From: Candidatus Parcubacteria bacterium
GTDB lineage: Bacteria > Patescibacteriota > Patescibacteriia > SG8-24
Assembly (NCBI GenBank): GCA_041169025.1
Contig: JBEEJS010000048.1
Coordinates: 1-17,441, forward strand
Length of the DNA stretch: 17,441 bases
Direction of reading: 5' to 3'
Positions 14,789-17,441 of the stretch are shown here, one piece after another. Below the pieces are notes generated by a model. The model ran no database searches, was not told the DNA's origin, and saw only the letters and a program-made list of their open reading frames with translations. The translations under genes were made by a program, and so were the position numbers. Positions within the stretch are counted from its first letter, which is position 1. Every line of letters starts with the position of its first letter.

Positions 14789-14910
14789 GCGTTTCTCCGT
14801 GTCGTGCCGCACGCGGCGGCGAATGCATGGGAGGATATCTCACATGCGGCGGAAAGCATGCTTTCTTGAGCGGCTATTGTCAATGGTCCGAGCTCGCATT
14901 TCCGCCCCTC

Positions 14911-14941
14911 TTGACCTTGACGTTACGTCATACTTTATGCT
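14911..14941 (+). promoter_or_regulatory. MerR-family-type promoter: -35 TTGACC, 19-bp spacer containing the perfect palindrome TGACGT-T-ACGTCA, -10 TATGCT; directed toward the MerR/TipAS gene (autoregulatory, tipA-like)
   Basis: TTGACC at 14911-14916, a 19-nt spacer at 14917-14935 containing the 13-bp palindrome at 14918-14930, and TATGCT at 14936-14941. The overlong 19-bp spacer with the operator inside it is the hallmark of MerR-family-activated promoters. Confidence 0.6.
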
Positions 14942-15028
14942 TCTGTTAGCGGACACGGACACCGGATTTCCGCAACGAAACTTCTTGCCTATCGGACTTT
15001 CCCCCTTTCCACCTTTCTCCCTTCGTCT

Positions 15029-15784
15029 ATGCCCTACACCGTCCACCAACTCGCCAAACTCTCGGGCGTGACGCCCCGCACCTTGCGCTTCTACGACAAG
15101 GCCGGTTTGCTGTCCCCCGCCTCGGTCGACAAGAACGGGTATCGCGCGTACGGCGAGAAGGAACTGATCCGCCTGCAGCAGATCCTCTTCTTCCGCGAAC
15201 TGGACCTGCCGCTCGGAGAAATCAAGGCGCTGCTCGACAAGCCAGGGAGCGACCGCGCGGCGACGCTCCGCTACCAGCGCGGGCTCCTGGCTCTGAAACG
15301 CAAACGTCTCGACAAGATTCTTAAGACCATCGATATGACCATGAACGACATGCGCGCGCCCGCAGACGACAAGGATCTCTACGGCTCGCTCTCCACGGAG
15401 GACATCGACGCATACAAGCAGGAAGCCAAGGAACGTTGGGGTTCCTCCGAGGCATACAAGACTTCCCAGCTGCGCGTCGCCAAGATGACCAAGGAGGACG
15501 TGCGACGCATGAAGGAGGATCAGGCGACGCTGCTCGCCGACCTCGCTGCTGCTTTCGTCGCGCGCCGTGCACCGACGAGCGCGGAGATGCAGGCGCTCGT
15601 CACCCGCCACCACGCCGGCATAGAGCGCTTCTACCCCTGCGCGCCGGAGATGTACCGCGGTCTGGGCCGGATGTACGTGGATGATGCGCGCTTCACCGCG
15701 TATTACGACAAGGCCGCACCGGGGCTTGCTGCGCATCTGAATGCGGCGATCCAGATCTGGTGCGACAAAAAAGAGACGAAGTGA
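15029..15784 (+). CDS. MerR-family transcriptional regulator with a TipAS-like C-terminal ligand-binding domain (Mta/TipAL/SkgA type), 251 aa
   Basis: N-terminal MPYTVHQLAKLSGVTPRTLRFYDKAGLL MerR HTH, a coiled-coil linker, and a C-terminal ...MYVDDARFTAYYDKAAPGLAAHLNAAIQIW matching the TipAS antibiotic-recognition domain consensus. No SD sequence; the 5' UTR is a pyrimidine-rich tract. Confidence 0.8.
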   Translation: MPYTVHQLAKLSGVTPRTLRFYDKAGLLSPASVDKNGYRAYGEKELIRLQQILFFRELDLPLGEIKALLDKPGSDRAATLRYQRGLLALKRKRLDKILKTIDMTMNDMRAPADDKDLYGSLSTEDIDAYKQEAKERWGSSEAYKTSQLRVAKMTKEDVRRMKEDQATLLADLAAAFVARRAPTSAEMQALVTRHHAGIERFYPCAPEMYRGLGRMYVDDARFTAYYDKAAPGLAAHLNAAIQIWCDKKETK

Positions 15785-15791
15785 ATCCGGG

Positions 15792-15826
15792 GACGGCTGG
15801 CGCATGCGCCGGCCGTCTTCGTTTTC
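15792..15826 (+). terminator. Rho-independent terminator after the MerR/TipAS gene
   Basis: gacggctggcgc-at-gcgccggccgtc: 12-bp stem with one G-U pair, followed by ttcgttttc. Confidence 0.55.
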
Positions 15827-15909
15827 GCCGATGTATCCATTGAAAGATTCGCCGTGGCGTGCTGACATGCCTCACGGCCCCCTGCGGGACCGCACTATCG
15901 GAGGACACC

Positions 15910-16899
15910 GTGAACAAGTCGATCGTCGCAGCGCTCCTGGCGCTCATGACGGCACGCAGCGCGCAGGCGCAGGACAACCGCACGACTGATGCTACGGCCG
16001 CGAATCACGCGGACGCGACGACGGACGACACCCCCTATCGGCTGCATCTCCGGATGAGCGGCCTCGAGGACCAGCTCTCCATCCTGGAGCAGCAGCATAT
16101 CGCCGACGGCAAGCGCCTGGATCAGCTGAACGAAAGGCTCGACCTGGCGCATCAGCGCGAGATCCTTGCCGACGAGCGCATGCGCGCGATGGAATCCGAC
16201 CTGCACGACCTGCAGGACAAGGTGGATTACCGGATGTACCACTTCGGCATCGGCACGGCCTTCGGGCCGGGCGGACCGCGGATGGCGATCGAGAGCCGGT
16301 TGAACTGGCTCAAGCTCACCTACTTCCCTGCCAAGGGACTCCAAACCCTGGCGGCACCGCAAGTCTACTTCGGCGAGCGCGTGGTCTGGCAACCGTTCGG
16401 CGTCGGTTTCATCATCTATCAGACTCGCGACGACGCCTTCTCGTCGCGCTGGCTGCGGCAATCGTTCGCGTTCGTCGGCGAGTCGGCGCTGGAAATCGAT
16501 CTGGTCGACATCCCGAACGTGATCCGTCTCGGTCTGCGGGCAGGCGTCAGCGTCTACGTGCCGAATCCGTTCGATGTCGTCAAGCCGGTGTACAACGACG
16601 TGAAGACGGACGTGAACACGGTGACGGACGCCGCGAACGACTTCGTCAGCATCTCCAAGAAGCTGGCGACGAAGCACCTGCCGCCTACGGGACTGGAGAA
16701 CGCATCGCTTGACGACCTGAAGGCGATTGAGCAGACCGACCCAGGTCAGCTGAATTCCTTCACGCCAAGCGAGGTCTACCTGCTCAATCACAAGATCCAA
16801 TCGCACGCCACCGATCACACGGCATCCACGGCGAAAGCGCTCACCGGACCGCTGACGCAGCCCACGGTGATGCTGAGCATCGTGGCGCGGTTCCCGTAG
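15910..16899 (+). CDS. Secreted or envelope protein: signal peptide, Thr/Asp/Ala-rich linker, coiled-coil, then a beta-rich C-terminal domain (329 aa); hypothetical
   Basis: GTG start at 15910 with a GGAGGA RBS 4-5 nt upstream gives VNKSIVAALLALMTARSAQAQD (signal peptide, AQA cleavage site). A heptad-like region follows (LEDQLSILEQQHIADGKRLDQLNERLDLAHQREIL), then a beta-rich domain. The ORF-track GTG start at 15859 precedes the RBS. Confidence 0.55.
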   Translation: MNKSIVAALLALMTARSAQAQDNRTTDATAANHADATTDDTPYRLHLRMSGLEDQLSILEQQHIADGKRLDQLNERLDLAHQREILADERMRAMESDLHDLQDKVDYRMYHFGIGTAFGPGGPRMAIESRLNWLKLTYFPAKGLQTLAAPQVYFGERVVWQPFGVGFIIYQTRDDAFSSRWLRQSFAFVGESALEIDLVDIPNVIRLGLRAGVSVYVPNPFDVVKPVYNDVKTDVNTVTDAANDFVSISKKLATKHLPPTGLENASLDDLKAIEQTDPGQLNSFTPSEVYLLNHKIQSHATDHTASTAKALTGPLTQPTVMLSIVARFP

Positions 16900-16925
16900 C
16901 GCACGAAACGTCAAAAATCCCCTTA

Positions 16926-16958
16926 AAAGACCGTCGCTGCATGCGGCGGTCTTTTCTT
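16926..16958 (+). terminator. Rho-independent terminator after the secreted-protein gene
   Basis: aaaagaccgtcgc-tgcat-gcggcggtcttttctt: 9-bp stem with one G-U pair. Same loop sequence as the 40-bp repeat hairpins. Confidence 0.7.
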
Positions 16959-16998
16959 GTCAATACATATTGACAAATTCGCTCTTTTTTGGTACCCT
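16957..16998 (+). promoter_or_regulatory. Promoter with an operator-like 20-bp palindrome overlapping the -35 element (TTGTCAATA-ca-TATTGACAA), and an extended -10 TGgTACCCT
   Basis: Perfect 9-bp inverted arms at 16957-16965 and 16968-16976. -35 TTGACA at 16971-16976, a 16-nt spacer ending in TGg, and TACCCT at 16993-16998. The AAGAGG RBS and the ATG at 17046 follow. Confidence 0.5.
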
Positions 16999-17045
16999 CA
17001 GGCCAATCCCGAATCGGGAGATCCCTGTCAAAAAAGAGGTTTACG

Positions 17046-17441
17046 ATGACGTACGTTTCACGTTTTCTGACCCTGTTTTCCCTGCTCTCGGCCAACGTGG
17101 CCCTGGCGCAAGACGCGACTGCCGCGCTCCCCGATGCCAGCGAGAGCGTGACCGTCACCGAGGCGCCCGCACCGGCAGACGCAGCCTCCACGGCGGTCAC
17201 GACGGATGTCGCCGTGCCCGCTGCCACGACCGATGCCGCAGCCCCCGTGACCGCCGCCCCGGCGGACGCGGACGCGCGCATCACGGCACTCGAAGCCGCG
17301 TTGCAGCAGGAGCGCGAGACGTCGCGTCTCGACTTCGAGCAATTGGCGTCTGCCAATTCCCACCTCCGGAATCGCGTCACCCTGCTCGAGGGCCGCGTAC
17401 TGGAAGTGGAACATGCCACGCAGTACCGCCAGTTCACCGCC
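17046..17441 (+). CDS. Secreted protein, partial (3' end off the window): signal peptide, Ala/Thr/Pro/Asp-rich low-complexity linker, then the start of a coiled-coil
   Basis: aagagg RBS 8 nt upstream of the ATG at 17046. MTYVSRFLTLFSLLSANVALAQDA signal peptide, then TEAPAPADAASTAVTTDVAVPAATTDAAAPVTAAPADA, then ITALEAALQQERETSRLDFEQL... The architecture parallels the 15910 gene. It is not in the ORF track because no stop falls inside the window. Confidence 0.55.
   Translation, partial: MTYVSRFLTLFSLLSANVALAQDATAALPDASESVTVTEAPAPADAASTAVTTDVAVPAATTDAAAPVTAAPADADARITALEAALQQERETSRLDFEQLASANSHLRNRVTLLEGRVLEVEHATQYRQFTA

Follow-up and report, generated by a model that had tools for sequence, protein, structure and literature searches.

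The 17,441-bp contig JBEEJS010000048.1 (assembly GCA_041169025.1, about 64 % G+C), which was analysed as a whole and is called the window here, belongs to a metagenome-assembled genome (MAG) labelled Candidatus Parcubacteria. It carries a gene for a major vault protein (MVP) homologue and, divergently oriented, a gene for a MerR-family regulator with a C-terminal TipAS domain, which is followed by two genes for putative exported coiled-coil proteins, sec1 and sec2. A preliminary description of this DNA had taken the four genes for one divergent regulatory module around MVP. The locus is quite probably simpler: a stand-alone TipA-class regulator with an autoregulatory promoter, MVP and the sec genes being separate transcription units and neighbours by chance.

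The region between the divergent start codons measures 240 bp, in agreement with the earlier description, which had also placed a MerR-type promoter in it. Base-by-base reading confirmed this promoter, with TTGACC as -35 hexamer, a 19-bp spacer and the perfect palindrome TGACGTTACGTCA (TGACGT-T-ACGTCA) within the spacer (Table 1). By itself the palindrome is weak evidence against chance; a perfect 6+6 palindrome turned up in 16 % of the shuffles of the 240-bp region. For the composite motif TTGAC-N4-ACGT-N-ACGT with up to two mismatches, 0.27 matches were expected in the window. For comparison, 36 homologues of the regulator were aligned and 80 metagenome loci of relatives with 36-51 % identity were fetched. 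The strict motif TTGAC-N4-ACG-N3-CGT was present in 60 of these 80 loci, 60 occurrences versus 0.23 expected in 487 kb, in every case once per locus, on the strand of the gene and directly 5' of the regulator start codon. A TAnnnT box followed at exactly 19-bp spacing in 56 of the 60. A position weight matrix (PWM) of 34 positions was built from 54 unique natural sites of homologous loci, with a training range of 28.7-51.5 bits. With this matrix the window site reached 50.5 bits, while the second-best distinct site of the contig had -5 bits. A standard promoter scan of 14600-17441 (16-18 bp spacer, at least four of six matches per hexamer) returned no promoter, as is to be expected for a MerR promoter with a 19-bp spacer and for -10 boxes that match at 3/6 positions.

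Promoter probes have been used experimentally for tipA (TTGCACCTCACGTCACGTGAGGAGGC), mta (TTGACCCTAACGTTGCGTGATTGTTT) and skgA (TTGACCCTCACGCCACGTCAGACCTG) (PMC7762955), and the window element TTGACCTTGACGTTACGTCATACTTT lines up with them. The match to these operator DNAs and the conservation in 60/80 loci uphold the earlier proposal of a promoter aimed at the regulator gene itself in a tipA-like autoregulatory design. The element at 14911-14941 reads as the standard autoregulatory promoter of a TipA-class regulator, genuine, ordinary and of textbook form. TipAL of Streptomyces lividans, Mta of Bacillus subtilis and SkgA of Caulobacter crescentus have the same architecture of MerR winged helix-turn-helix and TipAS domain, and the likeness extends to the TTGAC-type -35, the 19-bp spacer, the palindrome centred on ACGT-N-ACGT and the promoter facing its own gene. 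Unlike these systems, the window stems from a high-GC MAG labelled Candidatus Parcubacteria, with the nearest named homologues in Patescibacteria, and its palindrome is perfect over 13 bp. Factors of the TipA class have been termed "minimal autoregulated multidrug resistance systems" (PMC7762955).

Table 1. Features of the window around the MVP and regulator genes
Feature	Position	Strand	Details
ABC-2 permease	9128-9964	-	Pfam
ABC ATPase	9903-10844	-	Pfam
Glutathione S-transferase (GST)	10861 to about 11550	-	Pfam
Half-length major facilitator superfamily (MFS) transporter open reading frame (ORF)	11550-12104	-	184 amino acids (aa); MFS_1 positions 7-167 of 347
MVP homologue	12230-14788	-	852 aa; ATG at 14788, GGAG 6-9 nt upstream
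Intergenic region MVP/regulator	14789-15028		Divergent genes; 240 bp, read from ATG positions
Candidate MVP promoter	14855-14883	-	-35 TTGACA, 17-bp spacer, -10 CATGCT
Candidate MVP -10 CATGCT	14860-14855	-	17 bp after TTGACA
Candidate MVP -35 TTGACA	14883-14878	-	
Putative TipA-class MerR promoter/operator	14911-14941	+	Base-by-base reading, PWM, conservation
-35 TTGACC	14911-14916	+	Within regulator promoter
Spacer, 19 bp	14917-14935	+	Holds palindrome TGACGTTACGTCA
Perfect 13-bp palindrome TGACGTTACGTCA	14918-14930		TGACGT-T-ACGTCA, in spacer
-10 TATGCT	14936-14941	+	Within regulator promoter
MerR-family regulator, C-terminal TipAS domain	15029-15784	+	251 aa; ATG at 15029
Terminator-like hairpin after regulator gene	15788-15825	+	15-bp stem 15788-15821, then UUUU
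sec1	15910-16899	+	329 aa; GTG start, GGAGGA before start
Terminator-like hairpin after sec1	16925-16955	+	13-bp stem, flanked by A-run and U-run
Putative sec2 promoter region	16957-16998	+	Inverted repeat, -35 TTGACA 16970-16975, -10 TACCCT 16993-16998
sec2, 5' part only	17046-17441	+	132 codons; runs off contig end

Pfam matches bore out the identities proposed earlier for both divergent genes. The regulator matched TipAS (4.3e-38, profile positions 1-117 of 117), MerR_1 (2e-17), MerR (4.8e-14) and MerR-DNA-bind (1.6e-5). Among PDB entries, SkgA (7cla, 1.7e-41) aligned over the full length, followed by Lmo0526 (3qao, 7.6e-38) and the separate domains MtaN (1jbg, 9.5e-26), TipAN (2vz4, 5.6e-22) and TipAS (2mbz and 1ny9, about 2e-20). 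The N-terminal MerR-type winged helix-turn-helix with dimerisation helix and the C-terminal TipAS effector domain are both in place, and as far as sequence allows a test, all features that define the TipA class are present. Among 973 homologues, names from Patescibacteria are found in the top matches, the nearest protein being 58 % identical; an exact-sequence look-up revealed no further contig with this regulator. The tipA gene of S. lividans is known to give a second, shorter in-frame product made up of the TipAS domain only. In the window regulator, internal Met codons occur at residues 102, 104 and 107, none with an evident Shine-Dalgarno sequence, and no such sequence precedes the ATG of the regulator in the window or in its three closest homologues L170-L172 either. 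The pyrimidine-rich 5' leader (14942-15028) has about 80 nt, in these three homologues about 15-20 nt, and folds no better than shuffled sequences (z -0.2). Eight AT-rich loci (L089, L091, L092, L093, L094, L099, L103, L104), the ones closest to the Patescibacteria-named regulators, have a small leader hairpin in common between the -10 box and the ATG of the TipAS gene, with a conserved GGTCGA loop and covarying stems (GGTG/CACC, TAGGTT/AACCTA, GATGATG/CATCATC-like, CGTAG/CTACG). This hairpin is absent from the window and without an Rfam match there.

In the over-long spacer of 19 bp, the regulator would bind as a dimer to the ACGT-N-ACGT palindrome. Occupation of the TipAS domain by a ligand of hydrophobic or antibiotic-like nature would relieve the autoinhibition of DNA binding, and the DNA would be under-twisted so that the -35 and -10 boxes align and transcription of the regulator's own, monocistronic gene increases. 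The transcript would end at a strong terminator. MVP, on the opposite strand, would be transcribed apart from it, starting at TTGACA-17-CATGCT, and sec1 and sec2 would be further units, each bounded by a terminator, sec2 being read from a promoter of its own. The mechanism of the regulator is taken from the established biochemistry of TipAL, Mta, SkgA and the MerR family. Ligand response, start sites and promoter use are inferred, while the sequences themselves show the gene identities, the conservation of the operator, its single copy on the contig, the lack of a conserved adjacency and the terminator hairpins.

A second TipA-type operator was not found on the contig by pattern and PWM searches; with the operator-only PWM the next distinct site of the window reached 9.2 bits versus a training minimum of 16.4. 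A match with two mismatches at 8547-8559 was rejected, it spans the stop codon of the gene 7755-8549 and lacks a promoter context. The spacer that contains the single operator belongs to a promoter directed away from MVP. In the MVP direction the palindrome scored 6.1 bits and has no -35/-10 pair on its flanks. The co-regulation of MVP suggested in the preliminary description is not supported.

For MVP, the preliminary description had missed a convincing -10 box and considered an alternative sigma factor. We found a candidate, CATGCT, 17 bp after TTGACA (Table 1). The distance between the -35-like element ATTGACAAT (14876-14884, minus strand) and the operator is 33 bp if taken between their edges and 44 bp between their centres, not 60 bp as given before, and 27 bp separate the -35 hexamers of the MVP and regulator promoters. 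The 8-mer ATTGACAA within this region occurs four times in the window (8612-8619, 14877-14884, 16957-16964, 16969-16976) versus 0.2 expected, always between genes. In three of the four copies TTGACA is situated 17 bp upstream of a -10-like box (TAnnnT or CAnnnT) facing a gene, namely TAACGT before the ORF 8666-8962, CATGCT before MVP and TACCCT before sec2. The remaining copy (16957-16964, minus strand) forms the inverted arm of the palindrome at sec2 and is directed towards the 3' end of sec1. The 8-mer looks like an extended -35 element of the host. As MVP has this extended -35 in common with two other promoters of the contig, an alternative sigma factor is not needed, and MVP would form a separate unit with an ordinary-looking promoter of its own, TTGACA-17-CATGCT. 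Use of ATTGACAAT or of the sec2 palindrome as a shared operator was rejected; the 8-mer also precedes the unrelated ORF at 8666, which together with the fit to an extended -35 indicates a promoter element rather than a common operator. A perfect 14-bp palindrome, GAAAGCATGCTTTC (14852-14865), unique in the window, overlaps the candidate MVP -10 and could be an operator or binding site of some other factor. The palindromic hexamer GCATGC is found 21 times in the window versus 9.9 expected (0/200 shuffles reach 21); several of them are situated in the loops of hairpins and in the MVP -10 palindrome. Folding of the MVP leader was no better than that of shuffles (z -1.0).

Co-regulation of MVP by the TipAS/MerR protein through the shared divergent region, after the fashion of merR/merT or soxR/soxS, would connect a bacterial vault-like protein with xenobiotic stress. 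It would draw on the divergent orientation across 240 bp, on the 27 bp between the -35 hexamers and on the detoxification-type surroundings of MVP (GST, ABC-2 exporter, MFS remnant, TipAS regulator). Eukaryotic MVP (LRP) has historically been linked to multidrug resistance, which also speaks for such a connection. In the mer operon and in soxRS it is the promoter of the target gene whose spacer contains the operator. The window has in common with them a divergent pair, a short intergenic region and a MerR-family operator in a 19-bp spacer; unlike there, this spacer belongs to the regulator's own promoter, which faces away from MVP, and the MVP strand has no flanking -35/-10 pair. All 60 conserved operators of the relatives face the regulator gene only, and the contig offers no second operator.

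The pairing itself was searched for in relatives. The MVP set comprised 80 loci from species-representative genomes with 10-kb flanks and six loci of the closest MVPs (86 in total), the TipAS set the 80 metagenome and three annotated loci (83 in total), and homologues were sought by tblastn at E ≤1e-3. None of the other 86 MVP loci had a homologue of MerR/TipAS, sec1 or sec2 within 10 kb on either side, and none of the 83 TipAS loci had one of MVP, sec1 or sec2. Operator matches in the 1.46 Mb of MVP loci amounted to one, by chance, 8 kb from the MVP gene. Clustering of all flanking ORFs of 87 MVP loci yielded no conserved neighbour; the best cluster was present in 18 of the 87, with a position and orientation that differed between loci. 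The closest MVPs (54-55 % identical) have other surroundings, the conserved arrangement GT2 - GT2 - MVP - NYN - DUF4012 - DnaE (GT2, glycosyltransferase). Thus, adjacency of regulator and target in related genomes, as expected for a design of the mer or soxRS type, was not observed for MVP, and the synteny of MVP with the MerR and secreted coiled-coil genes, which the preliminary description had proposed to check, was not found in these loci.

One relative of the locus was informative. Locus L171 (GCA_964407925.1, 1-5759) has the ABC-2 permease, the ABC ATPase (72 % identical) and the GST (60 %) in the order and orientation of the window, and divergent from them a MerR/TipAS gene (52 % identical) with the nearly identical promoter CTCTTGACATTGACGTTGCGTCATACTTTATGCT. 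Between GST and regulator L171 encodes a protein of 1050 aa that carries PG_binding_1 repeats and is not similar to MVP; in the window this place is taken by MVP and the half-length MFS gene. The latter abuts the GST gene, does not occur in the L171 arrangement and is probably a gene remnant from a rearrangement beside MVP. Since L171 holds a different gene at this position, MVP seems to occupy a variable slot, with the conserved GST/ABC-2-exporter block on one side and the regulator gene on the other, and its adjacency to the regulator looks like a result of gene turnover. A mobile, patchy gene also fits the report of MVP homologues on phages (bioRxiv 10.1101/2023.11.10.566534). With the absent pairing in both sets of loci and the different gene in L171, a divergent MVP/MerR module could not be sustained, and regulation of MVP through the shared region is very improbable.

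The same synteny raises the question whether the true partner of the regulator is the GST/ABC-2 exporter block (9128-11550). The regulator would then switch detoxification genes locally, and MVP would have been inserted as a passenger. Block and regulator stayed together in the window and L171 although the intervening gene differs, and Mta-type regulators are known to activate drug transporters (PMC7762955). However, no operator-like site is located 5' of the GST or ABC genes in the window, where the best site elsewhere had 9.2 bits, and the candidate operator in L171 had 7.2 bits versus the training minimum of 16.4. In the 80 metagenome TipAS loci, GST was found in none and the ABC ATPase in two. 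The arrangement is present in two genomes only and could be explained by shared ancestry alone. We consider this partnership unlikely. Farther upstream in the window, the tandem genes 6732-7676 and 7755-8549 gave weak matches to prokaryotic SLOG/LSDAT domains (PF18171, 3e-5 and 8e-6); homologues of them were absent from all fetched loci.

Downstream of the regulator, three adjacent genes on the same strand with gaps of 125 bp (regulator-sec1) and 146 bp (sec1-sec2), two of them probable paralogues, could suggest one ligand-inducible operon or envelope module transcribed by read-through from the MerR promoter. Against this, a strong hairpin follows the regulator gene (RNA fold -35.7 kcal/mol, z -5.3; 0/200 shuffles fold as well) and a second one sec1 (-21.3 kcal/mol, z -6.1). 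They resemble intrinsic terminators, and the simplest reading is that the regulator gene, sec1 and sec2 are transcribed as three units. Furthermore, sec2 appears to have its own promoter, TTGACA-17-TACCCT, under a different palindrome, homologues of sec1 or sec2 are missing from all 83 TipAS loci, and the three annotated close homologues of the regulator have unrelated, mostly convergent genes downstream. An operon of these genes is therefore very unlikely. With the lone operator facing away from MVP and terminators after the regulator and sec1, the ligand-responsive envelope or vault module of the preliminary description is not supported either.

Identical 38-nt terminator-like hairpins, GAAAGCCGACCGCTGCATGCGGTCGGCTTTTCCTTTTG, at 8556-8593 and 9025-9062 flank the small ORF 8666-8962. 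Their core CTGCATGCGG recurs in the hairpin after sec1 (16925-16955), and a similar hairpin is found on L173, another contig of the same MAG, at 613-650. The repeated hairpins may be a family of terminators or a small mobile cassette.

As noted before, sec2 has a palindrome across its -35, which was confirmed. A perfect 9+9 inverted repeat, TTGTCAATA-CA-TATTGACAA (16957-16976), covers the -35 of a promoter with a 17-bp spacer; its probability in shuffles of the 146-bp intergenic region was about 0.002, and the full 20 bp are unique. It was not among the 12 best operator-only PWM matches, the lowest of which had 2.3 bits (training minimum 16.4), so by its score it is not a TipA-type operator.

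The preliminary description had attributed the same unusual architecture to the products of sec1 and sec2 and supposed paralogy. Both have a signal peptide ending AxA|QD, a linker rich in T, A, D and P, and a coiled coil. In sec1, the signal peptide (..SAQA|QD) and the T/A/D linker precede a coiled coil at about residues 41-106, and an 8-stranded beta-barrel with a helical insertion is predicted. The sec2 fragment consists of the signal peptide (..ALA|QD), a long T/A/P/D linker, the coiled coil and the junction motif EHATQYRQF. Neither protein belongs to a Pfam or NCBIfam family. Direct BLASTP of sec1 against the sec2 fragment found nothing (E 4.8), and the relation became visible only via remote family members and a profile. 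Among 5.8 billion proteins sec1 has one close homologue, P0242 (60 % identical); an exhaustive HMMER search added six remote relatives. The very small family counts 8 representatives among 1.84 billion. Its members have in their N-terminal part a signal peptide, a T/A/P/D-rich linker, a coiled coil and a [DQ]-Y-[RK] junction, and in their C-terminal part a beta-rich domain with conserved PNP-x-D, helices and a final strand ending with an aromatic residue. Family members terminate with W-x-F(E/K), sec1 and P0242 with A-R-F-P.

Against the profile of this family, hhalign placed the sec2 fragment with a probability of 84 % (E 7e-6), the alignment spanning the coiled coil and the junction. P0244, one of the two best matches of sec2, was hit by BLASTP at the junction with E 0.001 (EHATQYRQF versus EHDTQYRNF). 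P0244 is also the best match of P0243 (RLZZ324_415), a protein of the same MAG whose gene, truncated at the 5' end, lies at the very beginning of a different contig with 62 % GC (L173, 1-582); its barrel domain is 31 % identical to sec1 (E 3e-21). P0243 probably represents the C-terminal remainder of sec2, about 17 codons being absent from the assembly; otherwise it would be a third paralogue. Hence the shared architecture held, and sec1 and sec2 are probably distant paralogues of a small uncharacterised exported family, a relation that the alignment of the 15910 and 17046 products proposed earlier revealed with the family profile and not by direct BLASTP.

The sec1 structure was modelled with AF2 (AlphaFold2) from 8 sequences, a 2-sequence model (pLDDT, the predicted local distance difference test, 43.8) was discarded. 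The predicted barrel is OmpA/OmpW-like. The N-domain of OmpA, OmpW, PagL, OprF-N and NspA are small 8-stranded outer-membrane barrels without sequence similarity to sec1. Unlike these, sec1 is predicted to have a coiled-coil stalk (about 65 residues) at its N-terminus and a helical insertion (about 100 residues) ahead of the final strand, and it ends with R-F-P. The proteins sec1 and sec2 look like envelope proteins. Patescibacteria are commonly considered to be devoid of an outer membrane, and OmpA/OmpW-like barrel proteins would be unexpected in a member of this group. The genomic context of the family members P0244 and P0246 was uninformative. The only other contig with sec1, L001 (independent Logan assembly SRR35181043), ends at the last base of the window, inside sec2; the same end at window position 17441 and L001 position 1941 points to a systematic assembly break by a repeat, strain variation or low coverage. 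Nothing in these sequences points to a tie of sec1 or sec2 with MVP or the regulator.

The vault protein itself matched MVP_shoulder (PF11978, 8.5e-21) and Vault_3 (PF17795, 4.2e-13), and residues 425-783 aligned with 414-787 of rat MVP (E 6e-15). Shoulder and vault repeat domains are present; a single repeat model fires, which indicates N-terminal repeats divergent from the eukaryotic ones. The product and NCBI protein RLZZ324_330 are 100 % identical. Public genome and metagenome proteins include more than 6,700 homologues, with an identity to the window MVP of at most 57 %, and the family is widespread yet patchy in bacteria. MVPs 50-55 % identical are encoded in Patescibacteria-labelled MAGs (L003, L008, L082-L087) assigned to Saccharibacteria, Yanofskybacteria and Parcubacteria SG8_24. 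Two preprints deal with MVP homologues of bacteria and list Myxococcales, Cytophagales, Oscillatoriales and Firmicutes or phage (bioRxiv 10.1101/872010 and 10.1101/2023.11.10.566534); regulation and gene neighbourhood are not discussed there, and unlike these taxa the host of the window MVP is a Patescibacteria-labelled MAG. A literature search joining "Patescibacteria" and "major vault protein" found no paper, and a 2026 preprint on TIR-like NADases and the vault is silent on bacterial MVP. The parts that align with eukaryotic MVP (rat/human, PDB 4V60/4HL8) are the shoulder domain, a vault repeat and the helical region at the C-terminus. Unlike in eukaryotic vaults, no vPARP, TEP1 or vault RNA was evident on the contig by Pfam and an Rfam gathering search, the latter with 0 matches in the whole window. 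The eukaryotic vault is built from two halves of 39 subunits.

Several points weigh against a stand-alone regulator and chance neighbours. All promoters and start sites were deduced from sequence, and the putative -10 of MVP, CATGCT, agrees with the consensus at 3/6 positions only. The operator centre is about 76 bp upstream of the presumed MVP start, and interference or activation across the shared 240-bp region may occur. Mta-type regulators control unlinked transporter genes, the regulon could therefore reach beyond the 17-kb contig. The argument of a variable slot comes from one syntenic relative, L171. The contig has no close relative, the nearest MVP being 57 % and the nearest regulator 58 % identical; the synteny test thus samples distant genomes and would miss a rewiring specific to this lineage. 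All considered, there is a slight chance that MVP is nevertheless under the influence of the regulator. In particular, MVP may have been captured into a xenobiotic-response neighbourhood of TipAS/MerR, GST, ABC-2 exporter and MFS remnant and have its expression adjusted by the regulator, which would bind some 76 bp upstream of the MVP start; we regard this as a faint prospect. If true, the response to drug or toxin stress would include a bacterial shell similar to a vault, reminiscent of the old link of eukaryotic MVP/LRP to multidrug resistance.

For the preferred reading of a solitary TipA-class regulator beside unconnected genes, the main yield with regard to MVP is negative: the locus is no entry point to the function of bacterial vault proteins, and without conserved neighbours or regulators in 87 loci, the gene neighbourhood will not reveal this function. 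The analysis added MVP homologues in several Patescibacteria-labelled MAGs, a weight matrix of 34 positions for TipA-class operators from 54 unique natural sites, and a small exported protein family that combines a coiled-coil stalk with a predicted OmpA-like barrel in a MAG assigned to a phylum thought to be without outer membrane. Regulator and promoter together represent what reads as a textbook autoregulated unit of the TipA class, now also in genomes of the Patescibacteria type.

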